Below the pieces are notes generated by a model that was not told where the DNA came from, made no database searches, and worked only from the letters and a program-made list of their open reading frames with translations. Made by a program: the position numbers and the translations under genes. 25,803 nt of DNA from a virus (lineage: Duplodnaviria > Caudoviricetes): positions 1-25,803 of IMG/VR virus record IMGVR_UViG_3300034092_001533; one strand, 5' to 3'. Positions 15,151 through 25,803 of the stretch are shown here, one piece after another (the stretch's first letter is position 1; every line of letters begins with the position of its first letter).

Positions 15151-15322
15151 ATATTTCGTAAATATCAGCCTTGAGGTTGATATAAATAAATACGATAATA
15201 TACAAGCCATAGTTGACTCTTTTGACTTAATAGGATCTGCAGAAAATACAGAAATCCTTGAAGTTACATATGAAAAAGTTGAACAAGACTGGCAATCAGA
15301 TTCATCAGACGAAGACTACTAA
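15143..15322 (+). CDS. Small acidic hypothetical protein (59 aa, MNKYFVNISLEVD...)
   Basis: Translated by hand; SD GGAGG; overlaps the previous stop. Confidence 0.65.
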   Translation: MNKYFVNISLEVDINKYDNIQAIVDSFDLIGSAENTEILEVTYEKVEQDWQSDSSDEDY

Positions 15323-15335
15323 CTAGCATTTAATT

Positions 15336-15406
15336 GCGAGTGTTACATAATGGTAGTGTCTCTGCCTTCCAAGCAGATAGTGCCAGTTCGATTCTGGTCA
15401 CTCGCT
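15336..15406 (+). tRNA. trnG: tRNA-Gly(TCC)
   Basis: Acceptor GCGAGTG/CACTCGC, D arm ACAT/GTGT, anticodon arm TCTGC-CTTCCAA-GCAGA, T arm GCCAG-TTCGATT-CTGGT; CCA not encoded. Confidence 0.95.
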
Positions 15407-15410
15407 CAAT

Positions 15411-15449
15411 AAAAAACCCCTAGGATAATGCCTAGGGGTTATTTTTTTT
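15411..15449. terminator. Bidirectional intrinsic terminator
   Basis: AACCCCTAGG-ATAATG-CCTAGGGGTT flanked by A and T tracts, between convergent tRNA-Gly and endolysin. Confidence 0.9.
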
Positions 15450-15457
15450 ATAATGTT

Positions 15458-16276
15458 TTACTTTTTAGCTTTTAATGCTTTCCAAGTATTTTCATCAACA
15501 ATGCCAGTCTCAGCAATCTTATTTGCTTTCTGGAATGCTTTTACTGATGTTAATGTTAGACTACCAAAATCACCGTCAGCCTTTAGTTTAAGGAATGATT
15601 GTAGCTTTTTGACACGATCACCCTTATCTCCAAGCTTGATGGGTTTAAATGGCTCTGTAGCCTCTTTTTTAACTACTGGTTTATCTGCTACAGAAGGTTT
15701 TGGTGCTGATGCTGATGGCGAATCAGTTGATCCAACTTTAGATAGAAGAGGTAAATTTTCTTCTCCTACATAAACTGGTCTTCCCCATCCAACTACAGCG
15801 TTGAGAAGTTTCTTTTTGTTGTTCTTAACATATGCTCTAGTTTTTTCTACGCACATGCCACCATTACGTTGGTCACCCTTTGCTGTTCCTGAAGTATTTC
15901 CTTCAACAACCTGTATGGTTCCATCTCCATTATTCTTAACACAAATTCCAACATGAGATATTCTGTTTACTCCATCTTCTGGAAAATCAAAATAAATCCA
16001 GTCTCCTGGAGTTGGGTCATCATTTCTTGCGTCTGCCCATCTATTGTTTTTCTTAAACCAATCAGATGCTGCAACGGTAGATGCTGACTTTGGATATTTC
16101 TTAGGATCTAGACCAGCAGTAAAGGCACACCAAGAAACGAAAGACTGGCACCATGGTGCAAAATTTACTCCGCTCCATTTTCCATATTTAGTTTCGTTAT
16201 CTTTTGGTCCTTCTATGGTACCTATTTCTTTTTTAGCAACTTCAATAATTGCTTCTAGAGATCCTTTTGCTGACAC
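15458..16276 (-). CDS. Endolysin: CHAP amidase plus C-terminal peptidoglycan-binding domain
   Basis: PWCQSFVSW (catalytic Cys), SHVGI, VEGNT; P/K-rich linker; GDRVKKLQ..L..DGDFG..T..VKAFQ...GIVD..TW (PG_binding_1). Confidence 0.93.
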   Translation of the reverse strand: MSAKGSLEAIIEVAKKEIGTIEGPKDNETKYGKWSGVNFAPWCQSFVSWCAFTAGLDPKKYPKSASTVAASDWFKKNNRWADARNDDPTPGDWIYFDFPEDGVNRISHVGICVKNNGDGTIQVVEGNTSGTAKGDQRNGGMCVEKTRAYVKNNKKKLLNAVVGWGRPVYVGEENLPLLSKVGSTDSPSASAPKPSVADKPVVKKEATEPFKPIKLGDKGDRVKKLQSFLKLKADGDFGSLTLTSVKAFQKANKIAETGIVDENTWKALKAKK

Positions 16277-16278
16277 TA

Positions 16279-16530
16279 TTACTTGGCCGCCTTTTTCTTT
16301 GAAGGCTTTTTAACAGACTTAAGAGCTTCCTCAACATCTGATGTTGCTGGCAATCTTCCAAAAGCTTTGTCATTTGGATTGATTGCACGTAATGCAACTG
16401 GGATTAGGGCAGCTAGTAAAGCCTTAGATAGATCTGCAGGATCTGTTACACCAGCCATGTATAGAGCTGTTGCTGCTCCAATTACGGAACGTCCGTATGA
16501 AGCTAATGCATTTTTAATTTGTTCTGACAT
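16279..16530 (-). CDS. Putative holin (r1t-like)
   Basis: 83 aa with two hydrophobic helices and a basic C-terminus, immediately upstream of the endolysin. Confidence 0.7.
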   Translation of the reverse strand: MSEQIKNALASYGRSVIGAATALYMAGVTDPADLSKALLAALIPVALRAINPNDKAFGRLPATSDVEEALKSVKKPSKKKAAK

Positions 16531-16596
16531 GTATGTTTTCCTTTTCTAATATCTTTAGATATTATTAATATTTATTAAATTATTAAGATAATAAAT

Positions 16597-16626
16597 GAGC
16601 CGTTTACATGGACAATGCTCAGGTCC
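16597..16626 (-). ncRNA. Candidate H-type pseudoknot element, copy 1
   Basis: GGAC-CTGAGCATT-GTCC-ATG-TAAAC-GGCTC; second copy at 25505-25535 has compensatory stem changes. Confidence 0.6.
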
Positions 16627-16692
16627 CTTATGCTTTTCACCATAGCCTAAAAGGCTTTAGGTCCGAATAGAAAAGCACAATTATATTATAGC

Positions 16693-17115
16693 CTATTTAA
16701 CTTTTATTTGTCTAGGCTTCTTTTCCTCTGGAAGGATACGCTCAATTTCAATTTTAAGCATCCCGTCCTTGAGTTCAGCAGCTTTTACTTCCATATATTC
16801 ACCAAGGGCCCACTCACGGGTAAATTTACGGGCAGCGATACCACGGTGGATAAACTTCGAATCGTTATCCTCCGCCTTTGTCTCTCCCTTTACGATGAGT
16901 TTTCCATCAGATACAGAAATATCAATATCTGTCTTGGTAAATCCAGCCAAAGCAAGCTCTACGACAAAGCTGTCGTCGTCTACTTTGATTAGATTATATG
17001 GTGGGTAATTTGTTGCTGTAGATACATTCTGGACATGATTCCAGGTATCTAGGGCTCTATCGAACCCAATGAAAAATGGGTCTTTAAAAAGATCCCATGT
17101 GTAAGTTGTAACCAT
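16693..17115 (-). CDS. hsp20: Small heat-shock protein (Hsp20/alpha-crystallin)
   Basis: FFIGFD, NYPPYNL, LAGF, HRGIAARKFTR and LKDGMLKI...PEEKKP motifs. Confidence 0.96.
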   Translation of the reverse strand: MVTTYTWDLFKDPFFIGFDRALDTWNHVQNVSTATNYPPYNLIKVDDDSFVVELALAGFTKTDIDISVSDGKLIVKGETKAEDNDSKFIHRGIAARKFTREWALGEYMEVKAAELKDGMLKIEIERILPEEKKPRQIKVK

Positions 17116-17178
17116 TTTTTGCTCCTTTTAAGCGAGTTAATTTAGCACCCCCCGAAGCGAGGTACTATTAATATTATA
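17116..17178 (-). promoter_or_regulatory. hsp20 promoter -10 box and ROSE-like 5'UTR
   Basis: TATAAT at 17178-17173; 5' hairpin TAGTACCTC/GGGGTGCTA; CTCGCT-TAAA-AGGAG hairpin sequesters the SD with a bulged G. Confidence 0.6.
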
Positions 17179-17267
17179 TCAAATATTTTTTAAATATGTC
17201 CATATAGACGGGAGTGAAGTGCGCCGAAAAATAGGGGTAAGAACACTTTTGCCTGTATAATTTAAGC

Positions 17268-17621
17268 ATGGAATTATACGACCAATTAACGCCTGTAGAA
17301 AAGGCCTATCATGACGCCCTACTTGGCGTAGTAGATAAATACGGACCATTTGATAAAGGTAGCGGCAGTGTTTGGGTCGGATATGAAGATGGCGAAGATA
17401 ATGAAAATTCAGCTATTGGAGTAAAGTGCGGAAACTGCTCATTTCATGTAGAGCTTTCTGGAACTACTGAGCTAGGATGTAAGATACTATCATTTAATGT
17501 AGAAGAGAATGGATTATGTAGATTAGCTGCTATTCCAGATGGATTAGTGAACGCCGAATCAGATGATATGGATGATATGGAAAATATGAATAAATTTTGG
17601 AATGGGGCATTTAGTAAATAA
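17268..17621 (+). CDS. Hypothetical protein with a HiPIP-like four-cysteine motif
   Basis: CGNC-x13-C-x12-C with V...GLC; leaderless start after TATAAT. Confidence 0.6.
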   Translation: MELYDQLTPVEKAYHDALLGVVDKYGPFDKGSGSVWVGYEDGEDNENSAIGVKCGNCSFHVELSGTTELGCKILSFNVEENGLCRLAAIPDGLVNAESDDMDDMENMNKFWNGAFSK

Positions 17622-18001
17622 TGTATACATACTACACTAAGGTAAGTAATATAGTAGATGGAGATACAGTAGATGTATTTGTTGATTTGGGATTTAAGGT
17701 ATGGCGTCAAGAACGTATGCGTTTAGTAGGTATTGATACCGCCGAGAAAAATACACCATATGGTAAGGCTACTAAAGAGTACCTTACTAAGCTATTAGTT
17801 GATAAGACTGTAAAGCTTGAGGTGTTTAAACCTGATAAATATGGTAGATACCTAGCAAAGATTTATATTAATTCCGAGAAATCGATCAACGACCAAATGG
17901 TAGAAAAAGGTATGGCTAAAGGCTATATGGGTGATTCTAAAGTTGGTCTATGGACTGAAGCTGAATTAGCCAGAACTACTGTAGATATAGTATTAGAGTA
18001 A
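17621..18001 (+). CDS. Thermonuclease (SNase-like)
   Basis: VDGDTV, RLVGIDTAE, DKYGRYLA and INDQMVEKGMA motifs. Confidence 0.93.
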   Translation: MYTYYTKVSNIVDGDTVDVFVDLGFKVWRQERMRLVGIDTAEKNTPYGKATKEYLTKLLVDKTVKLEVFKPDKYGRYLAKIYINSEKSINDQMVEKGMAKGYMGDSKVGLWTEAELARTTVDIVLE

Positions 18002-18005
18002 TATA

Positions 18006-18149
18006 CTAGGAGTTAGGATCATAACTCTCTAGGGCAAGAAGGATCTCTTCTGCCATCCCGTCGAAATTCAATTTTTGCTCTGAAGTGATATATTGACCTG
18101 ATTGAATCATCTTTTGAATTACAGATGATAGATATTGTTTTTTAGACAT
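18006..18149 (-). CDS. Small hypothetical protein (47 aa, MSKKQYLSS...)
   Basis: Translated by hand; strong SD GGGAGGT. Confidence 0.6.
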   Translation of the reverse strand: MSKKQYLSSVIQKMIQSGQYITSEQKLNFDGMAEEILLALESYDPNS

Positions 18150-18240
18150 AATTACCTCCCTAAATTTTAGGTTAGTAATCTATTATAAGATAAATAGACA
18201 TATTTTACAAATATAGCAATATGCCCTGTTTATTTATATA

Positions 18241-18486
18241 CTATGATATACGCTTAGTAGCTATATAAAGTGAAATACATACTGCAGACATTGCTAACAT
18301 TGGTATTAAGCTAGAAAGATTATTGATCAAGCTATAGTGACCGTTATAGAATCTCCAGGCATACTCATGAATTGAAGTTACAGTAAATAGTGTTGATATA
18401 TGAAGATGGAAAGATAATATTTTTGACAATACGCTAGCGCTACCGCCAGTTATAATTGTTGGTTTATCTAATATGTTTAATGACAT
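18241..18486 (-). CDS. Small hydrophobic/membrane protein
   Basis: SD GAGGAG; hydrophobic segments. Confidence 0.55.
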   Translation of the reverse strand: MSLNILDKPTIITGGSASVLSKILSFHLHISTLFTVTSIHEYAWRFYNGHYSLINNLSSLIPMLAMSAVCISLYIATKRIS

Positions 18487-18488
18487 TT

Positions 18489-18635
18489 TTACTCCTCAAA
18501 AGATACTTGATTTTCGATCATTTCATCAGTTACAGAATTACATGAACAATTACAGCATTTTTCTTTAACCATTGAAATTGGATCGTAGCCTTTTGGGGTT
18601 TGTCTGGCCCATGAATCTGGGTAATTATTTTCCAT
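18489..18635 (-). CDS. Small Cys-rich protein (48 aa, KCCNCSC)
   Basis: Translated by hand; fills the gap in a leftward operon. Confidence 0.5.
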   Translation of the reverse strand: MENNYPDSWARQTPKGYDPISMVKEKCCNCSCNSVTDEMIENQVSFEE

Positions 18636-18646
18636 ACCCAATTCTA

Positions 18647-19108
18647 TCATGGAAATTTTATATTGCCATTGTCGGCAAAGACAAGAGCTAGTGAGTCTCC
18701 TGGATTTAAAGATAGTTCATTAACTCCTACTTGAGCCCAAGCATATTTACCATTGAGGTCAAACGGGTTAGGGATAGGTTGTTTTCTTTTTTCTAGAATA
18801 GCCCAGTATGCTTTCTCTGAAGGCATCTCCTGACATGACTCATCTTTATAGGCAGGCAATCCATTTAGACGACATACTACAGCATCGCCATACTTAACTG
18901 TTCCCTCTACCTTAAAGCCATTATTCTTTAGGAAGTCTAGAGCTTTTACCTCATCACTCCAAGGAATACACTTATCAATTGTTGGCTCTCCCAAAACGCT
19001 ATAGTCTACATATAGACCTATGCAATCTTTACTTGGATCTGTTGCTACGGATATTACTCCACCAACACCTAATAAAATTAAAATTGATAATAATACTCTA
19101 GATAACAT
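18647..19108 (-). CDS. Secreted/membrane-anchored protein, possibly DUF4430/transcobalamin-C-like
   Basis: N-terminal signal/TM; VVCRLNGLP..C..MP..AYWA..AQVG..L.PGDSL pattern recalled from actinobacterial surface proteins; SD AGAGGAG. Confidence 0.55.
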   Translation of the reverse strand: MLSRVLLSILILLGVGGVISVATDPSKDCIGLYVDYSVLGEPTIDKCIPWSDEVKALDFLKNNGFKVEGTVKYGDAVVCRLNGLPAYKDESCQEMPSEKAYWAILEKRKQPIPNPFDLNGKYAWAQVGVNELSLNPGDSLALVFADNGNIKFP

Positions 19109-19181
19109 TTACTCTCCTCTTATAGTAATAATAATATACAGAAAGCTGTATATAATAATGCTACCATAATTATTAGGTTTT

Positions 19182-19343
19182 TCATAGGGTAGGCTTGGGA
19201 AAGTGAATTTCGAAACAGGACTGACAATATTTTATTAATATACCTTTAGAGTCTAACTTTGAGGTATAGGCATACTTATCACAATAATTACATATCGGCG
19301 GGGTGAAATCTAGTGAGTTCTCGAGATTCTCCAATATAGCCAT
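19182..19343 (-). CDS. Small Zn-finger-like protein (CNYC...CQSC)
   Basis: Likely start is ATG 19343 with SD GGGAG. Confidence 0.55.
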   Translation of the reverse strand: MAILENLENSLDFTPPICNYCDKYAYTSKLDSKGILIKYCQSCFEIHFPKPTL

Positions 19344-19543
19344 AATACTCCCTAATAAGATCAAAGGTTAATACGATACATACCTTGATATATCAATTAT
19401 ATCATATATGCCCTGTTTTTATATACCTATAATGTTAATAAAATTTTAAAATTTAGATACTATGTTACTGATGAGTAACTTATATTTGATATATATAATC
19501 ATATATTCTTTATCTTTTCTATCTTGTATTCTATACTTGATAC

Positions 19544-19680
19544 TTGGGAATTAGATTTTAGCAAAACCCCCCCTCCCCCCATGAATTAAATTCTCATGGT
19601 GAGAAGAGAGAAGCTTCACTAAACTCCCAAGAATTACTTGGTGTATTGAGTTCTAGTGTAAACCCCCAAAAACCTTTTCC
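19544..19680 (-). ncRNA. Candidate structured non-coding RNA (three-way junction, about 135 nt)
   Basis: Own promoter; two long hairpins inside a closing stem; many G-U pairs that work only on the minus strand; no ORF. Confidence 0.5.
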
Positions 19681-19683
19681 TCA

Positions 19684-19713
19684 AGTATAACAGCAAGGTA
19701 AATTTTATGTCAA
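19684..19713 (-). promoter_or_regulatory. Strong sigmaA-type promoter
   Basis: TTGACA(19713-19708)-18 nt-TATACT(19689-19684) with TG extension. Confidence 0.7.
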
Positions 19714-19780
19714 CCCTTCTCGATCTAAAATACCCAAAATGTTAATAAATTTTTATTTTGTATGATGCACTATTTTGAGC

Positions 19781-19796
19781 TCGAACACCTGTTCGA
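19781..19796. promoter_or_regulatory. Actinobacterial LexA (SOS) box
   Basis: TCGAAC-ACCT-GTTCGA, a perfect match to TCGAAC-N4-GTTCGA, intergenic. Confidence 0.75.
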
Positions 19797-19853
19797 ATAG
19801 CGAGCACAGAGGATAGGGATAAAAGGGACATACTACTCAGTAGGGTCCCCCCA

Positions 19854-19869
19854 TGTGATGGACATCACA
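19854..19869. promoter_or_regulatory. CRP/GlxR-type box
   Basis: TGTGA-TGGACA-TCACA. Confidence 0.7.
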
Positions 19870-19907
19870 AAAATAATTTACCGACACGCCCGAAAAACAC
19901 CCTAAAA

Positions 19908-19929
19908 TGTCAGTGGTCTATGTTAGGAT
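19908..19929 (+). promoter_or_regulatory. PafBC/RecA-NDp-type promoter 1
   Basis: TGTCAG-N10-TAGGAT. Confidence 0.7.
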
Positions 19930-19980
19930 ACTATGTATAAAGAAAGTTAAGGAAAGTCCTTAAACTAGAAAGGAGTTCAG

Positions 19981-20175
19981 ATGAACTCAATTATCCTAGA
20001 GCCTAGCCACCCAATGGCTAGCAGTAATACAGGCGATAGCCGTATTTTCCGTAATACAGTAGGTAACTACATAAGCCGTAAGGCTTATCTAGAAATGCTA
20101 TCTACTAGTAAGGGTTGCGTATCTCATAAATACCTTAGCCCTAATGAGTCTGCTTGGCTCATGAGTGTGAGATAA
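19981..20175 (+). CDS. Small early-region hypothetical protein
   Basis: SD AGAAAGGAG. Confidence 0.7.
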   Translation: MNSIILEPSHPMASSNTGDSRIFRNTVGNYISRKAYLEMLSTSKGCVSHKYLSPNESAWLMSVR

Positions 20176-20181
20176 CTCACA
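20166..20181. promoter_or_regulatory. CRP/GlxR-type box
   Basis: TGTGA-GATAAC-TCACA. Confidence 0.7.
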
Positions 20182-20209
20182 CCCCACGCCCTGCGTGTCG
20201 GCTTGATAA

Positions 20210-20231
20210 TGTCGGTCAAGTCTGATAGTCT
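20210..20231 (+). promoter_or_regulatory. PafBC/RecA-NDp-type promoter 2
   Basis: TGTCGG-N10-TAGTCT. Confidence 0.75.
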
Positions 20232-20274
20232 TACAGACAACAAAATGAAAGTTATCTTAGAAAGGATAAACTAA

Positions 20275-20403
20275 ATGAATATCGAACAATATAAAGAAAT
20301 GGTAGAGGCTCAGAGAGCCGAGAGCCTAAGAAACGCAATTCTTGCGCTAACAAAAGCGAACAACGCTTTAACTAATAATTTTAATGTAGAGGAGAATAAC
20401 TAA
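20275..20403 (+). CDS. Small hypothetical protein (42 aa)
   Basis: Translated by hand (MNIEQYKEMVEAQR...); SD AGAAAGGA. Confidence 0.7.
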   Translation: MNIEQYKEMVEAQRAESLRNAILALTKANNALTNNFNVEENN

Positions 20404-20565
20404 ATGAAAATAACTTACTCAATTTGGCAAGGCTCATTACAGAAGGGCACACTAACTTCTAATAGTATTAAAGATATAGTTAAGACTATAGACGAGTTAA
20501 ACTCAGTTAATCCACCCGTTAAGTTTGAATACCTAGTCCATAAGATTGAACAGGTAAATAACTAA
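20404..20565 (+). CDS. Small hypothetical protein (53 aa)
   Basis: MKITYSIWQG...; SD GAGGAG; TAATG coupling. Confidence 0.7.
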   Translation: MKITYSIWQGSLQKGTLTSNSIKDIVKTIDELNSVNPPVKFEYLVHKIEQVNN

Positions 20566-20753
20566 TGAAATCAGGATATCAAGTTAGATTAGAAACTTAC
20601 AGCGGTGAGGTAATGAATATCCACCTAATTAATAAAGAAGCCGTAAGGTTATTCATAGAAGAATTACCTAATCGATTAAGTAAGGGAACTAAAGTCAGCT
20701 TCGCTTGCGATGTCTTGGCTATTGGTGGCTCTCTAATGGGGAGAAAAGAATAA
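20565..20753 (+). CDS. Small hypothetical protein, paralogue of 22778..22969
   Basis: Shared T[YF]SGEV...IN..AV..F...LP..L...V.F.CD.L. Confidence 0.7.
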   Translation: MKSGYQVRLETYSGEVMNIHLINKEAVRLFIEELPNRLSKGTKVSFACDVLAIGGSLMGRKE

Positions 20754-20893
20754 TGAAATCTATAATCGCTTCCCTAGTAATCTGCTCGGCTATTGTGTCC
20801 CTCGATATTCTAACCGATCCAATTTACTCGAATTGTAAACAGACAATAGAAGGACGCACCTGCGACCTTGTTGGATATAAGTGGAAGCCTTGA
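20753..20893 (+). CDS. Small secreted/membrane protein (46 aa)
   Basis: Start at TAATG 20753 (MKSIIASLVIC...); hydrophobic N-terminus. Confidence 0.6.
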   Translation: MKSIIASLVICSAIVSLDILTDPIYSNCKQTIEGRTCDLVGYKWKP

Positions 20894-20919
20894 CAGTTGT
20901 CAGGGCTAACCGATAGAAT
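20890..20919 (+). promoter_or_regulatory. PafBC-type promoter 3, also with a canonical -35
   Basis: TGTCAG(20898)-N10-TAGAAT; TTGACA at 20890-20895. Confidence 0.7.
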
Positions 20920-20945
20920 TAAACTACGAAAGGAAAACTAAACAA

Positions 20946-21116
20946 ATGGAAATAACTATAGAAATAAATGAGTGGGGCTTAGGTCTTTACTCTCCTTGGG
21001 CTGGCTTCGATTTTACTTGGGGCTTTGCTATCACCACCGCAATTTTAATTTATGCGATTAGATATTTTAAAAAGTATCCAATCAAGACTCCTAGATTTTT
21101 AAGGAGAATTAAATAA
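20946..21116 (+). CDS. Small membrane protein (56 aa)
   Basis: MEITIEINEWG...; one hydrophobic helix and a basic tail; SD GAAAGGA. Confidence 0.7.
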   Translation: MEITIEINEWGLGLYSPWAGFDFTWGFAITTAILIYAIRYFKKYPIKTPRFLRRIK

Positions 21117-21307
21117 TGCCAATGACTAGAAAAGATTATCAGGAAACTGCTAAGATTTTAAAACAATATGCCGATGAAATTCATCCCGCTATTTTTAATG
21201 ATTTAGTAGATGAGTTTTCTGAAATGTTTGAAAAAGATAATCCGAGATTTGACCCAGAGCGATTTGAAAAAGCAACGGGCGCAAATAATTTAGAATTTAA
21301 TTTTTAA
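21116..21307 (+). CDS. Small phage protein (MTRKDY...DNPRFD..RF..A type)
   Basis: Recurrent phage early-protein motif; SD AAGGAG. Confidence 0.75.
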   Translation: MPMTRKDYQETAKILKQYADEIHPAIFNDLVDEFSEMFEKDNPRFDPERFEKATGANNLEFNF

Positions 21308-21335
21308 TAAATTAAATTAACTCGTTAGGGTGTGG

Positions 21336-21375
21336 CGACACGCCCGAACGAGGCGCCCCGCAGTCGGGCGTGTCG
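21336..21375. repeat. Perfect 12-bp inverted repeat CGACACGCCCGA/TCGGGCGTGTCG around GGCGCCCCGC
   Basis: Arms 21336-21347 and 21364-21375; half-copies at 19882, 22172, 23192 and 24261. Confidence 0.9.
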
Positions 21376-21382
21376 ATTAAGA

Positions 21383-21440
21383 CGTGATTTTAATCACCTG
21401 GAAAATTTGAGCGTGAAAAATCCATGTGAGGTTTATCACA
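21383..21440. promoter_or_regulatory. Two CRP/GlxR-type boxes
   Basis: CGTGA-TTTTAA-TCACC (21383-21398) and TGTGA-GGTTTA-TCACA (21425-21440). Confidence 0.7.
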
Positions 21441-21480
21441 ATCCCAAATGTCCGTTTTGGTATGGTTACTGGTCAGTAAA

Positions 21481-21502
21481 TGTCAGTGGTAGGTGTTATA
21501 CT
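21481..21502 (+). promoter_or_regulatory. PafBC-type promoter 4
   Basis: TGTCAG-N10-TATACT. Confidence 0.75.
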
Positions 21503-21552
21503 TCTAGTATAAAGAAAGTTGAGAAAGGTTCTCAAACTAGAAAGGAATTCAA

Positions 21553-21732
21553 ATGAATTCAACAATAATCGAAGTGTGCAAGACACACGTTCCTAATAAA
21601 TCTGCTATCTCCGAAGTAGGAGATGACCAGTTTACATTCTGCGAAGTTTGTGAACAAAACATTGAGCGTTGGTATAACGATACTGACCCTGAGCGTCTAC
21701 CTATGTGGACTTCATGGAAAGTAGGTAAGTAA
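21553..21732 (+). CDS. Small Zn-binding-like protein (59 aa; CKTH...CEVC)
   Basis: Translated by hand; SD AGAAAGGA. Confidence 0.7.
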   Translation: MNSTIIEVCKTHVPNKSAISEVGDDQFTFCEVCEQNIERWYNDTDPERLPMWTSWKVGK

Positions 21733-21733
21733 T

Positions 21734-21868
21734 ATGAATACACTTATCTGCGCTTTCTGCGAAATGGTTTACACCAATGATGTAAAGTTTTGCGGTTTCT
21801 GTAATGAATATAAAGGTCTAATGACCATATCCGATTTTGATAAATACTATGGAAAGGTTTCTAACTAA
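21734..21868 (+). CDS. Small Zn-ribbon protein (44 aa; CAFC-x10-CGFC)
   Basis: Translated by hand; coupled to neighbours. Confidence 0.65.
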   Translation: MNTLICAFCEMVYTNDVKFCGFCNEYKGLMTISDFDKYYGKVSN

Positions 21869-22029
21869 TGAATGACTATGAATTAAAAAATAATCTAATA
21901 AATCAAATTAAAGATTTAGCGGATAATAAATATACTAAAGAGTTTTCTAACTCTGCTCTATGGGGTTGTGCAACAGCATTGCTAACCACTGAACAATTAA
22001 AAATTATAAAATCGGTAATGGAGAAATAA
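21868..22029 (+). CDS. Small hypothetical protein (53 aa)
   Basis: TAATG coupling; SD GAAAGG. Confidence 0.65.
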   Translation: MNDYELKNNLINQIKDLADNKYTKEFSNSALWGCATALLTTEQLKIIKSVMEK

Positions 22030-22121
22030 TGAAAATAGAATTTGAAAAAGCAATTCAATTAGATCATTTAACTAAAGATGAATTGGAATTAGTAGAAAAT
22101 ATTTTAAAAGATTTTAAATAA
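22029..22121 (+). CDS. Very small hypothetical protein (30 aa)
   Basis: TAATG coupling; SD GGAG. Confidence 0.55.
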   Translation: MKIEFEKAIQLDHLTKDELELVENILKDFK

Positions 22122-22154
22122 ATAAAAAGCGTGTTAGCTTGACAAACGCAGAAA

Positions 22155-22233
22155 TGCGGGGCACCCCGCAGTCGGGCGTGTCGATTAAGTACGATGTGAT
22201 TAAGTTCACAGAATTTTTGTGGTGTAAATCACA
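22155..22233. promoter_or_regulatory. Cassette spacer: GC-rich repeat plus two CRP-type boxes
   Basis: GGGCACCCCGCAGTCGGGCGTGTCG; TGTGA-TTAAGT-TCACA (22195-22210); TGTGG-TGTAAA-TCACA (22218-22233). Confidence 0.7.
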
Positions 22234-22281
22234 CGGCTGAGCGTCTCATTATTTGGAATTACTGGCGGGTAAGTAGCAAAA

Positions 22282-22303
22282 TGTCTGCCCGTTCTGATAG
22301 ACT
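22282..22303 (+). promoter_or_regulatory. PafBC-type promoter 5
   Basis: TGTCTG-N10-TAGACT. Confidence 0.7.
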
Positions 22304-22339
22304 TACAGAGTAAGAAAATAAAGAAAGGAAGTAGTCACA

Positions 22340-22540
22340 ATGGCTAACTTATACACAATACAAGACCTTTTAATAGGTAAAAAATACGATAGCAATTCTC
22401 TAAGTGGAGTAATTGTATCTGCTGAAAAATCTAACCAACCAATTTGGTATGGTGAAAATACTGATGCTTATTTAGTAGAAATTAACTGCGGAACTTTGAA
22501 AAACCAATTCCGCACAATAGCAGTAAAGGTTGGTGAATAA
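22340..22540 (+). CDS. Small hypothetical protein
   Basis: SD AGAAAGGA. Confidence 0.75.
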   Translation: MANLYTIQDLLIGKKYDSNSLSGVIVSAEKSNQPIWYGENTDAYLVEINCGTLKNQFRTIAVKVGE

Positions 22541-22542
22541 TA

Positions 22543-22665
22543 ATGGGTTATGTTGAAATCTTTCGCCTTGATGAGCAAGGTGCTGGCTGGGTAGATTTAT
22601 CTGAGGCTACCCCGCAGGAATTATTAGACTTAGAAATTGGATTATTTCAGGAAGGTGCTATCTAA
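22543..22665 (+). CDS. Small acidic protein (40 aa, MGYVEIFRLDE...)
   Basis: Translated by hand; coupled. Confidence 0.65.
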   Translation: MGYVEIFRLDEQGAGWVDLSEATPQELLDLEIGLFQEGAI

Positions 22666-22781
22666 TGATAAACTCCGTAATGAGATTTGATTGCAACGAA
22701 TGTTCAGGCTCAGGCTTGATTTTTTGGGGCGATAATGATAACTATGATGTTGAAACTTGCGAATGTGAGGTGCTAGTTTGA
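22665..22781 (+). CDS. Small Zn-finger protein (38 aa; CNECSGSG...YDVETCEC)
   Basis: Translated by hand; paralogous to 23475..23660. Confidence 0.7.
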   Translation: MINSVMRFDCNECSGSGLIFWGDNDNYDVETCECEVLV

Positions 22782-22969
22782 TACCAGCAACAATAACAAC
22801 CTTTTCAGGAGAAGTAAAAAAACTAGAGTTTATAAATCCTAATGCAGTTGATTTTTTTACAAAGAAATTGCCTGCAGTATTGCCCGAAAATGTTTCGGTA
22901 TATTTTGAATGTGACTTATTAGATTTGCGTGGAACAATTAGAAGCGCAATTAAATCGGATGGAGAATAA
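22778..22969 (+). CDS. Small hypothetical protein, paralogue of 20565..20753
   Basis: TTG start overlapping the previous stop; SD GAGGTG. Confidence 0.7.
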   Translation: MIPATITTFSGEVKKLEFINPNAVDFFTKKLPAVLPENVSVYFECDLLDLRGTIRSAIKSDGE

Positions 22970-22970
22970 A

Positions 22971-23171
22971 ATGAAAACAATTAAACACTCTTTAGATTTT
23001 GTAACTGAGTTAGATGAAAATGACCCAACTGCTAAAAGATTATTAGCGATACCTGAAAATGAAAGAGAAATGTTGTTAAAAGATATGTTAATTAATATGT
23101 TTGATTTGGACAGTTTAATTGATGCAGTAAATGCTGGCAACTCTTGGGCTCATCTAAAACTTTTAAAATAA
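22971..23171 (+). CDS. Small hypothetical protein
   Basis: Likely start ATG 22971 (MKTIKHSLDF), SD GGAG. Confidence 0.65.
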   Translation: MKTIKHSLDFVTELDENDPTAKRLLAIPENEREMLLKDMLINMFDLDSLIDAVNAGNSWAHLKLLK

Positions 23172-23181
23172 AAAGCTTGGA

Positions 23182-23299
23182 TCGGGTGTGGCGACACGCC
23201 CGACCGAGGGGCCCCGCCCGAAATGTCCGATTTACGTAGATTAAGTAGATTGCCTGGAAAGTTGTGAAATAGATCACAAAATTAAATTACGGCGTGTCG
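23182..23299. promoter_or_regulatory. Cassette spacer: GC-rich hairpin repeat, CRP-type box and GGCGTGTCG
   Basis: TCGGGTGTG-GCGA-CACGCCCGA; TGTGA-AATAGA-TCACA (23263-23278); GGCGTGTCG (23291-23299). Confidence 0.7.
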
Positions 23300-23306
23300 T
23301 AGAAAA

Positions 23307-23328
23307 TGTCACCCCAACCTGATAGGCT
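23307..23328 (+). promoter_or_regulatory. PafBC-type promoter 6
   Basis: TGTCAC-N10-TAGGCT. Confidence 0.65.
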
Positions 23329-23352
23329 TAGATTATCTAAGAAAGGAAAACT

Positions 23353-23475
23353 ATGAAAGACTACTACGACGAATACTATGATGATTACTATTCTAAAGAA
23401 CTGCCACCTAGCGGTGATAGTTGTTATTGTCGCACTATGGTGTTATGCTCTAATTGTATGAAGGGATACAAATAA
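23353..23475 (+). CDS. Small D/Y-rich, Cys-rich protein (40 aa)
   Basis: MKDYYDEYYDDYY...CYC...CSNC; SD AGAAAGGA. Confidence 0.7.
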   Translation: MKDYYDEYYDDYYSKELPPSGDSCYCRTMVLCSNCMKGYK

Positions 23476-23660
23476 TGGGAAAGTTTAAGGAAAGTATTAC
23501 TAATATATTGACCTGCGGTTGGTGTTATGGTCAAGGCTGGCAATATGTCGGTAATGATGTAGACTATGATGTATGGGCTTGTGAGTGTAATACTTACAAT
23601 ATACCTGCTGATGAAATACTGGAGTACCACCAATTATTCAAAACTAAGGAGAACGCATAA
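23475..23660 (+). CDS. Small Zn-finger protein (CGWCYGQG...YDVWACEC)
   Basis: Start at TAATG 23475. Confidence 0.7.
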   Translation: MGKFKESITNILTCGWCYGQGWQYVGNDVDYDVWACECNTYNIPADEILEYHQLFKTKENA

Positions 23661-23869
23661 TGGAATATAACTACTCAATTACCACTTCCTATGACGGGGA
23701 GTTGGTTCACACCCTGCGTGTTAGCGATATGCTAGAGGCAGTAGACGCTTGGAATAAATGTGTAGATTTTGGCGACGCTAAAGAATACGCAACCTATAAC
23801 TTGTCCGACCCAACGGGTAAGATGTATACAAAGAACTTCTATAGAAATGGAGTAGTAAGTGGGAAATAA
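23660..23869 (+). CDS. Small hypothetical protein
   Basis: SD AAGGAG; TAATG coupling. Confidence 0.75.
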   Translation: MEYNYSITTSYDGELVHTLRVSDMLEAVDAWNKCVDFGDAKEYATYNLSDPTGKMYTKNFYRNGVVSGK

Positions 23870-24170
23870 TCTATCTCAGGAATTAGCCGAAGGTCTATTA
23901 GACTTAGACTTAGAAACTCAGATAACAATTCAATTAAGGAATAATCATTATCCGCCCGTTCCTTATTCAATGGTTCAACCTTGTATTGACGCTATTGACG
24001 CTTACAATGATGGTGAGCATGATAAGTTAATTCAATTACCAACCGACGGGTTTGATGCTAATGGTGAGCCGTTCCAAATTACTTGGCGTGGTAAAACTTC
24101 AGCACCTGCTCATGCCTTAGTTGAAGCACACCACTTAGAAAATTGGATTATAGAAAGAGAGTTGTGTTAA
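23859..24170 (+). CDS. Hypothetical phage protein (NHYPPVP motif)
   Basis: GTG start; SD GGAG. Confidence 0.75.
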   Translation: MGNNLSQELAEGLLDLDLETQITIQLRNNHYPPVPYSMVQPCIDAIDAYNDGEHDKLIQLPTDGFDANGEPFQITWRGKTSAPAHALVEAHHLENWIIERELC

Positions 24171-24186
24171 TTTATAATTAAATAAA

Positions 24187-24260
24187 GGTTCGTTAGCTCA
24201 GTTGGTTAGAGCGCTACCCTGTCACGGTAGAGGTCACGGGTTCAAGTCCCGTACGAATCG
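24187..24260 (+). tRNA. trnD: tRNA-Asp(GTC)
   Basis: Acceptor GGTTCGT/ACGAATC, D arm GCTC/GAGC, anticodon arm CTACC-CTGTCAC-GGTAG, T arm ACGGG-TTCAAGT-CCCGT, discriminator G; CCA not encoded. Confidence 0.96.
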
Positions 24261-24336
24261 CAACACGCCCGAACGGGGCGCCCCGCATTTTCTGGCATTT
24301 ACGTACATTAAGCAGAGCCCCACAAAATTTGTGGAA

Positions 24337-24358
24337 TGTCAGTCAAAGCTGCTAGAAT
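24337..24358 (+). promoter_or_regulatory. PafBC-type promoter 7 (leaderless)
   Basis: TGTCAG-N10-TAGAAT, ATG 6 nt downstream. Confidence 0.75.
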
Positions 24359-24364
24359 TAAATC

Positions 24365-25084
24365 ATGAAGCTAAAAAGATCAAATGACAGGAAGGTGGCC
24401 AACCTTGTCACAAAAAATGGAAAGCAAGCCGCTATGGCAAATACTTTTGGATTACCTGCTGGTAAAGAATTCTCATGTCCTGGCGCTACTAGTATATGCG
24501 AAAGTGTCTGCTACGCAGGAAAGCTTGAAAAACTCTTCAAAGGAGTAAAAACTAATCTGCTGCATAACTGGGAGCTCCTTAAGGACGCAGATCTTCAGAC
24601 AATGTACTCTCTAATTTCTGACATGATCTCAGAATTTAAAACAGAATGCGTAAAGAAAAATGCGCCTATGTTATTCCGTATACACTGGGACGGAGATTTT
24701 TTTAACGAAGACTACACACATGCATGGAAGCTGGTTATTGAAGAACAGCCCGATATTAAATTTTGGGTATATACTCGTGTTAAGTCCGCTGCACTAATTC
24801 TTAAAGACATCCCTAACTTATCACTATATTATTCTACGGATGATGAGAATCTACCAATTGCTACAGAATTAAAACAGGTTAACGGTGTTAGACTTGCATA
24901 CCTAGGAAAAACTTTTGCTCTTACAGAAACTAAGATGAAAGAAATAACTGGCAAAGTTGGTGCAAAGTGCCCTGAAAACAATAAGTCTATTCCGCTAATT
25001 AGCAATGCAGGATCTGCCTGCGTCTCTTGTGGATTGTGTGTATACGGTAAGGCGGATATTCGATTTAGCGCTACCAAAAAATAG
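24365..25084 (+). CDS. GP88-like protein (Fe-S/radical-SAM-like; mycobacteriophage gp88 family)
   Basis: FGLPAG..SCPGAT..C...CYA, FRIHWDGDF, WVYTR and C-terminal CPE...CVSCGLC. Confidence 0.8.
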   Translation: MKLKRSNDRKVANLVTKNGKQAAMANTFGLPAGKEFSCPGATSICESVCYAGKLEKLFKGVKTNLLHNWELLKDADLQTMYSLISDMISEFKTECVKKNAPMLFRIHWDGDFFNEDYTHAWKLVIEEQPDIKFWVYTRVKSAALILKDIPNLSLYYSTDDENLPIATELKQVNGVRLAYLGKTFALTETKMKEITGKVGAKCPENNKSIPLISNAGSACVSCGLCVYGKADIRFSATKK

Positions 25085-25119
25085 TTAGGGCCCATTAATG
25101 ATTTGGTTTGTTGTTGTTG

Positions 25120-25165
25120 CTGCAGCGGGGATTGTTGTGGTCCCCGTTGCAGGGGTTTTTATTTT
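25120..25165 (+). terminator. Intrinsic terminator
   Basis: CTGCAGCGGGGAT/GTCCCCGTTGCAG 13-bp stem followed by GGGTTTTTATTTT. Confidence 0.7.
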
Positions 25166-25234
25166 ATTTAGATCAGCTCGTAATATATAGCGCTGCGAGG
25201 CGCCCCGCAAATCCATTTTGTCAAATTAAGAACG

Positions 25235-25250
25235 TGTGATTTTTCCCACA
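25235..25250. promoter_or_regulatory. CRP/GlxR-type box (one mismatch)
   Basis: TGTGA-TTTTTC-CCACA. Confidence 0.6.
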
Positions 25251-25297
25251 AAAATAATCAGTAAAATGTCCGATTTGCCCTATTCATAAATTGTAAA

Positions 25298-25319
25298 TGT
25301 CGGTCAGTTCTGATAGAGT
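25298..25319 (+). promoter_or_regulatory. PafBC-type promoter 8
   Basis: TGTCGG-N10-TAGAGT. Confidence 0.75.
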
Positions 25320-25345
25320 TGTATTACTAAACGAAAGGAAGCACA

Positions 25346-25495
25346 ATGGCAAATACACCAAAAATCGGTGAAACAATTACCACTACCAAGTCTGGTATTA
25401 CAGGCAAGGTTGAGGAAGTTGTAAAGAACGCATCTGGCTCGGTGCGTGTCCGTCTAACAGTAGATGGAAAGCCACGCTGGACTACTATCAAGTAG
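25346..25495 (+). CDS. Small basic beta-rich (SH3/KOW-like) protein (49 aa)
   Basis: MANTPKIGETITTTKSGITGKVEEV...; SD GAAAGGA. Confidence 0.7.
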   Translation: MANTPKIGETITTTKSGITGKVEEVVKNASGSVRVRLTVDGKPRWTTIK

Positions 25496-25504
25496 CAAGC
25501 AACG

Positions 25505-25535
25505 CCACCTGAGCAAGTGGAGGGATAAACTGCTC
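25505..25535 (+). ncRNA. Candidate H-type pseudoknot element, copy 2
   Basis: CCAC-CTGAGCAA-GTGG-AGGGA-TAAAC-TGCTC. Confidence 0.6.
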
Positions 25536-25549
25536 AACAAAAACCCTAG

Positions 25550-25571
25550 TGTCTGACCCCTATGTTAGACT
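25550..25571 (+). promoter_or_regulatory. PafBC-type promoter 9
   Basis: TGTCTG-N10-TAGACT. Confidence 0.65.
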
Positions 25572-25608: not shown

Positions 25609-25803
25609 ATGGCAAGAAGCGGAAAAGCGATACAGGTAAAAATCGCAACTACTAAGGTTATCAAAGCCTTAGAAATAAGATTAGCCAAACTAGAGGCTGA
25701 TTACACAAAGCAAGATGAAAACGAAGCAAAGTATCAGAAGGCTATGGAAAAATGGCGTAAAGAAATTGGCAAGTGGGCTATTGCTAATTTTGCTAAAGCA
25801 GAA
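25609..25803 (+). CDS. Hypothetical coiled-coil protein, truncated by the window edge
   Basis: MARSGKAIQVKIATTKVIKALE...; SD AAAGGA; no stop in the window. Confidence 0.75.
   Translation, partial: MARSGKAIQVKIATTKVIKALEIRLAKLEADYTKQDENEAKYQKAMEKWRKEIGKWAIANFAKAE

Follow-up and report, generated by a model that had tools for sequence, protein, structure and literature searches.

Two pseudoknots and the genes around them

The window analysed here is the whole stretch of 25,803 nucleotides (nt) from the IMG/VR record IMGVR_UViG_3300034092_001533, a 25.8-kb virus record with tail-fibre-like genes, a ribonucleotide reductase, an endolysin, an hsp20 gene, two tRNAs and many small genes, and our subject is a compact RNA pseudoknot that it carries twice. 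A sequence-only reading had placed the two copies at 16626-16597 on the minus strand and 25505-25535 on the plus strand, and both were found there. The pattern common to both occurs twice in the window, and not one of 100 dinucleotide shuffles gave even a single occurrence. With a covariance model built from 24 examples, both copies included, only these two full copies were detected within the window. The third match of the model, at 17419-17447 (+), consists of the 3′ half of the motif alone, lies inside an open reading frame (ORF) of 117 amino acids (aa) and was treated as chance.

Each copy can be folded into a predicted H-type pseudoknot with a 4-bp stem 1 closed by a C-G pair, a loop 1 of a single C, a stem 2 of 5–6 bp, a single bulged base and a loop 3 with AAAC at its end. 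In copy 1 (16596..16626, minus strand) stem 1 would pair 16626-16623 with 16613-16610, the loop-1 C is at 16622, and stem 2 would join UGAGC (16621-16617) to GCUCA (16600-16596), where an extra U-G pair is possible and an A is bulged; loop 3 reads AUGUAAAC, and the covariation behind this predicted pairing comes from the family. For copy 2 (25505..25536, plus strand) the corresponding elements are 25505-25508 with 25517-25520, the loop-1 C at 25509, UGAGCA (25510-25515) with UGCUCA (25531-25536), a bulged A at 25516 and the loop 3 AGGGAUAAAC. The stem-1 loops of the two copies are CUGAGCAUU and CUGAGCAA. The pairing of the loop GAGC(A) with the 3′ (U)GCUC proposed earlier is therefore kept in our model, but stem 2 can gain one pair between the loop U and the A after GCUC, which leaves the single C as loop 1; among the 24 alignment rows this added pair is U-A in 18 and U-G in three. 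The sequences CUGAGCA and UAAAC had been called invariant, and so they are in the two window copies, but not across the family, where stem 2 covaries and AAAC is preceded by U in 211 of 393 instances and by A in 139. Standard folding without pseudoknots draws either stem alone, with a z-score that is not significant.

Copy 1 follows the small heat-shock gene hsp20 (16693..17115, minus strand), whose proposed identity is backed by both Pfam (PF00011) and PHROGs (phrog_432). A sigma-70-type promoter-like site (16685..16714, minus strand; TAGACA-18-TATAAT, 11 of 12 matches) overlaps the hsp20 stop, and between it and the knot lies a 53-nt predicted leader hairpin (16628..16680, minus strand; −18.3 kcal/mol, z −3.55), as stable as which was only one of 200 shuffles and whose sequence differs among relatives. 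On the other side, 65 nt separate the knot from an 83-aa ORF (16279..16530, minus strand), which is followed by an endolysin with CHAP and peptidoglycan-binding domains (15458-16276). The 83-aa ORF has no family match, and we call it a putative holin from its position ahead of the endolysin. This spacer (16531-16595, minus strand) consists of 65 AU-rich bases here and of about 22 in a relative with 94% identity (L625 in our locus numbering). Contigs from three RNA runs of the same study did not include any on window 15200-18100, which is silent on expression.

Copy 2 starts 9 nt past the stop of a 49-aa ORF without assigned function (25346..25495, plus strand), in agreement with the suggested placement just after a stop codon and before the next gene, whereas copy 1 lies 66 nt past the hsp20 stop and does not fit it. 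From the end of copy 2 it is 72 nt to the next start codon, and a 7-bp hairpin (25551..25570, plus strand; z −2.95 for the 75-nt spacer) is predicted 15 nt past the knot. The downstream ORF (25609..25803, plus strand) is cut at the window end; in a near-identical relative (L007) it encodes 141 aa and is followed, past the end of our window, by a third knot copy after its stop. A terminator scan of the window did not call the knot as a terminator. Elsewhere in the window there are two tRNA genes at 15336-15406 and 24187-24260 (both plus strand), with the anticodons UCC and GUC according to Rfam alignments, and a two-way terminator-like hairpin at 15415-15440 between the first tRNA and the endolysin gene.

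Covariation and spread of the family

To be a functional RNA the element should have covarying homologues in phage metagenomes, a check that had been proposed beforehand, and these were found for the pairing in both stems. When stem 1 was left free in the search, at least four pairs were present in 90 of 100 distinct viral matches, and at least three in 391 of 393 distinct viral instances. The standard register applies to 353 instances. Their second pair is AU in 171, UA in 159, CG in 20 and GC in three, their third position is paired in 352, and their loops end in U (179), A (132), C (37) or G (5). In the 24-row alignment 96.7% of cells pair compared with 22–42% for slid controls, a comparison that leans toward structure as the rows were chosen as carriers; the closing C-G pair is present in 23 rows, the miss being an out-of-register row of copy 1. 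The covariation claimed for stem 1 from two copies is thus family-wide and almost full.

Stem 2, with 97% of its cells paired in the same alignment, is nearly fixed in the subfamily searched first, and the first scan aimed at it returned mostly near-misses without the motif. It covaries across subfamilies once it is left free: at least three in-register pairs were seen in 58 of 110 loop/tail pairs, against 25.9 on average and 36 at most over 1000 permutations, and the series includes GAGCA/UGCUC, GGACA/UGUCC, CAGCA/UGCUG and GGUCA/UGACC. With covariation in both stems a functional RNA pseudoknot is well supported.

Scanning viral contigs with a free stem 1 gave 122 stretches from nine of 64 parts of the collection, or an estimated 900 or so overall, and two looser patterns led to estimates of about 3500 and 3200. 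We therefore estimate the family at several thousand IMG/VR stretches, counted as stored stretches and not as species. In 596 billion bases of cellular genomes 98 pattern matches were found where about 104 are expected by chance, and at least four stem-1 pairs formed in 18 of 95 cellular but 64 of 73 viral matches under the same stricter dereplication. Since the cellular matches are near chance and mostly do not form stem 1, the element is viral, with a few copies on cellular contigs. Well-formed copies were noted on contigs of Methanobrevibacter, Saccharibacteria, Ktedonobacter and Mesorhizobium (L130, L136, L160, L173, L199), and contigs labelled as giant-virus genomes gave pattern matches in L276 (two) and L762. 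The cultured or named carriers found are Roseobacter phage SIO1, the crAss-like phage cr7_1, Bacillus phage WH1, Lactobacillus phage phig1e, mycobacteriophage Labelle, Arthrobacter phage Molivia, Nostoc phage NMeng1, a microvirus and, imperfectly, E. coli phage phiEcoM-GJ1, whose copy has a stem-1 mismatch and lies inside an annotated hypothetical gene. On inspection, the BLAST matches in AR9/PBS1, Phabio and a Staphylococcus phage fall short of the full motif.

Tandem arrangements also occur. A variant knot with a different stem 2 lies about 10–35 nt upstream of the main copy in L028, L059, L067 and L094, and further tandem copies were seen in L004, L013, L086, L087 and L112.

Position relative to the flanking genes

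Among 168 representatives with long flanks the neighbouring genes are mostly in sense, with 122 of 129 calls upstream and 104 of 118 downstream (39 and 50 representatives were without a call). From 371 instances with flanks we drew 257 lineage representatives, and 152 of these have a stop codon within 25 nt upstream; the closing C follows 8–9 nt past the stop in 52 of the 152 and closer than that in five, in a count that looked only 6 nt into the motif. In a separate listing, which allowed stops anywhere in the motif, no sense gene ended inside. Stem 1 starts most often 5 nt past the stop (13 of 59), and this is about the first base outside a ribosome that holds the stop codon in its A site. 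Thus, the 4-bp stem 1 begins at about the first base beyond the terminating ribosome. The downstream side is G-poor, and in 18 of 59 cases a start codon follows 19–23 nt past the end of the knot.

For the 49-aa ORF the comparison covered only four loci. Behind hsp20, in 31 of 32 distinct loci (80 fetched), the order of stop and TATAAT, variable hairpins and knot is kept, and the one miss is misframed; a correctly framed hsp20 relative without the knot was not among the fetched loci, and in the 31 correctly framed ones the TATAAT box is just past the stop. The association of the knot with hsp20 persists over 24 downstream families. In these relatives a ribosome-binding site and a start codon mostly follow about 20 nt past the knot, with no terminator there, so that it is no obligatory terminator. 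A promoter-like site followed by one to three hairpins and ending in the knot is found at 16628-16714 (minus strand) of the window and behind hsp20 in L001, L011, L628 and L633, with lineage-specific hairpin sequences. As a convergent gene or a new promoter follows in some lineages, this promoter-led run could be a stand-alone small RNA.

Calls of tRNAs downstream of the knot were made in 20 of the 257 representatives, 14 of them at a distance of 3–7 nt, and upstream in four. Six of the 14 near calls are doubtful tRNA-Asp-like ones, apparently from one phage group, and annotated tRNAs directly follow the knot in the phages Molivia and NMeng1. The tRNA-Asp-like call, 4–7 nt past the knot in trimmed flanks (L028, L039, L070, L423, L506, L523), was lost when L028, L039 and L070 were scanned whole and possibly reflects a degenerate tRNA-like structure.

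Possible functions and known relatives

The sequence-only reading had left the element without a named family. Rfam covariance models, run over the whole window and both spacers at loose thresholds, gave no family, and only the two tRNAs reached the gathering score. The closest relative is the coremin motif, likewise without an Rfam match here, an exoribonuclease-resistant RNA (xrRNA-C) from beet necrotic yellow vein virus, cucumoviruses and other eukaryotic RNA viruses. The phage element shares with it the first stem of 3–4 bp closed by C-G, a loop that begins with C and ends in A-N and a spacer ending in AAAC-U, and coremin, too, is often found directly after a stop codon and in tandem. Based on this likeness we favour, with slightly less than even confidence, that the knot acts as a protein-free roadblock to 5′-to-3′ decay at phage gene boundaries. 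The loop-1 C and the AAAC strand would pack on both stems, as proposed for coremin, and the long Watson–Crick stem 2 might stand in for the second hairpin of coremin. Once the upstream gene has been cut by an endonuclease, the knot, which would sit just outside the terminating ribosome, would stop RNase J, or RNase E that scans from a 5′ monophosphate, so that the next gene, tRNA or small RNA would outlive the upstream one. The protected message would be holin-endolysin for copy 1 and the 141-aa gene for copy 2. In agreement with such a block a flaviviral xrRNA halts the bacterial RNase J1 (PMC5760640, PMC8374639), and in E. coli H-type pseudoknots hinder the scanning of RNase E to a degree proportional to their size (PMC9943677). 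The C-terminal domain of RNase J was found in six of ten cellular carriers and in an actinobacterial control genome.

Several observations weigh against a decay block. Coremin is described with a C-G closing pair, a YGAD or YGNNAD loop, a spacer A16-A20 and an adjacent second hairpin, the latter being strictly needed for Xrn1 resistance (PMC6546385, PMC10520033). The phage loop has 8–9 nt with U at position 2, and the spacer departs from AACUA, with AAAC in both copies, U19 kept in copy 2 but G in copy 1, and G in place of A20 in both, where it pairs with the loop. No adjacent second hairpin follows copy 1 and that of copy 2, 15 nt off, is too far; across the family one was present in eight of 93 cases compared with 16.2 in shuffles, and in 18 of 59 compared with 15.8. 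As the loop, A20 and the second hairpin differ, we do not file the window copies as coremin, and they work like it at best. The pseudoknot of the luteovirus beet western yellows virus (BWYV), of similar size, does not stall Xrn1 (PMC10321173), so that the topology alone is not sufficient for a block, and a pseudoknot of 11 pairs was only a modest obstacle to RNase E (PMC9943677), while the phage knot has about ten. The RNase J domain was absent from five of five Bacteroidota genomes, yet the crAss-like phage has two pattern matches, and RNase J can therefore not be the sole target. Some copies have no obvious downstream cargo to protect: Pfam-supported convergent genes end 5 nt past the knot in L001 and L077, and within a set rich in one phage group a promoter-like site lies within 70 nt downstream in 15 of 93 cases (3.5 expected) and a U-rich tract follows in 40 of 93 (9.4 expected).

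Convergent genes, downstream promoters, U-tracts and tRNAs are better explained if the knot serves the upstream RNA by forming or protecting its 3′ end against 3′-to-5′ exonucleases, with RNase P or RNase E cutting just downstream or, where a U-tract is present, perhaps as a leaky terminator. The tight spacing to the upstream stop and the constancy of the knot behind hsp20 over so many downstream families also speak for this possibility. U-tracts, seen in 80 of the 257 representatives and absent after copy 2, are commoner where no gene follows closely (67 of 192 compared with 13 of 65, p 0.03), and classical terminators are rare nearby (two downstream and five upstream among the 168). Nevertheless we regard it, the main alternative, as rather unlikely: a plain hairpin would suffice for such a role, which leaves the conserved coremin-type core without explanation, and for the many copies about 20 nt before a start codon termination cannot be efficient, because no promoter lies in between. 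The tests of direction were not significant either, with 14 convergent genes downstream against seven divergent ones upstream (p 0.19) and neighbour swaps in 17 against 16 families, a count confounded by single-linkage chains.

The spacings to stop and start codons described above would also be expected if the knot had ribosomes as its target; located where the mRNA enters the terminating one, it would insulate the translation of one gene from that of the next or shape loading at the next start. Coremin itself stalls scanning ribosomes and promotes frameshifting (PMC10321173, PMC10520033). But the same spacings would result if the knot merely must stay folded between two ribosome footprints, and copies before tRNAs or convergent genes as well as copy 1, far from its stop, do not fit, which makes an action on ribosomes improbable. 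Readthrough or frameshifting is unsupported, as a slippery heptamer was found by the stop in none of 102 cases, the stop is UAA in 73 of them and no frame is favoured as open (21, 26 and 14 of 102). Even less probable is a protein or small-ligand site or a small self-cleaving RNA. The unpaired loop-1 C and AAAC are strongly conserved and tandem copies occur in several loci, and the promoter-driven hairpin RNA behind hsp20 could be a decoy; these conserved positions are, however, those that coremin needs to fold (PMC6546385), and there is neither a common downstream function nor an Rfam riboswitch or ribozyme match. Of the possibilities raised beforehand, a riboswitch is thus unlikely, as the downstream genes share no pathway, and the occurrence in phages of unrelated host phyla makes a binding site for a host protein less likely. 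The fluoride riboswitch, pk1 of transfer-messenger RNA, boxA and the hammerhead, pistol and hepatitis delta virus-like ribozymes were dropped on topology and for lack of an Rfam match. The readings are compatible with each other, as a very stable knot could block both directions.

Going further than a decay block, and with somewhat less confidence, we suggest that phages of nearly all bacterial phyla may use the coremin fold as a natural exoribonuclease-resistant RNA. A self-sufficient knot of 30 nt would then punctuate polycistronic messages and set which genes outlast host decay, with phages as the main reservoir of this xrRNA class and covariation settling the fold. The xrRNAs are described from eukaryotic viruses and, according to PMC5760640, never naturally meet RNase J. 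No description of the motif in phages was found in searches of the open-access literature, and words for it were absent from seven supplementary files of the viral candidate-RNA catalogue PMC10690425, files 1 and 2 being outside the search. The family offers a simple way to test whether gene dosage in bacterial viruses is controlled through structured blocks to decay. In either direction of action, a portable 30-nt element that works in hosts of different phyla would add a new level to phage gene regulation and be of use as a part for stabilising RNA. The window adds the apparent continuum of loops from four to eight nt, the sharp boundary at the terminating ribosome and cases suggestive of a role on the upstream side.

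Intrinsic terminators and 3′ stabilisers of the repetitive extragenic palindrome type also stand just after stops, and in some cases a U-tract, promoter or convergent gene comes next, but the phage element is a pseudoknot of conserved sequence and lies mostly inside apparent operons. Pseudoknot obstacles to RNase E scanning (PMC9943677) have in common with it a coaxial H-type pairing, placed within a bacterial leader and followed by an AU-rich single strand; those were foreign knots in reporters, whereas here we deal with a natural phage element. The knots for −1 frameshifting in luteoviruses (BWYV and potato leafroll virus; PMC10321173) resemble it in size, the one-C loop 1, the A-rich loop 3 and the position about 5 nt behind the ribosome, but the phage element is intergenic and has no slippery site. 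Closer is the Watson–Crick coremin variant xrRNA-WCC, which stalls Xrn1 and is likewise an H-type knot on the coremin frame with a one-nt loop 1 and a pair A7-U19 (PMC10321173). The Watson–Crick stem 2 of xrRNA-WCC between loop and spacer is also found in the phage family. In contrast, xrRNA-WCC has a 4-nt loop and needs G5, G8-C18 and the second hairpin (PMC10321173), while the phage element has C at position 5, mostly U or A as the final base of the loop, and a stem 2 of double the length.

From coremin itself the phage knot differs further in its Watson–Crick stem 2 of 5–6 bp and its occurrence in DNA viruses of bacteria. Six of the 257 lineage representatives have the exact stem and spacer of coremin, or one change, around the longer loop. 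With only this stem and spacer fixed, viral contigs gave 128 distinct matches, among them 37 with six-nt loops and 66 with eight-nt loops of the window type, and the second-last loop base was A in 114 of the 128. Many of the 37 six-nt loops are identical to loops tested as resistant, CGCAAU, CGAGAU, CGAAAU and CGCGAA being known to stall Xrn1 (PMC10520033); such YGNNAD loops are absent from the window copies. Several of these cases are on contigs of 18–39 kb, others on contigs of 2–4 kb that may be RNA viruses. The four-nt-loop pattern was found in 94 viral stretches, where about five are expected by chance, and in one lineage on contigs of 17–43 kb (L847 and relatives) a canonical four-nt-loop coremin with a small second hairpin follows a U-rich tract. 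A second hairpin was seen in 13 of 24 six-nt-loop copies (9.2 expected) and, in a similar test, in 34 of 48 four-nt-loop coremins (20.2 expected). By their sequences the four-, six- and eight-nt-loop forms share one junction and appear as a loop-length continuum on one frame. As the structure of coremin was unsolved in 2023 (PMC10520033, PMC10321173), thousands of phage elements on its frame with both stems covarying provide a direct model for the coremin fold.

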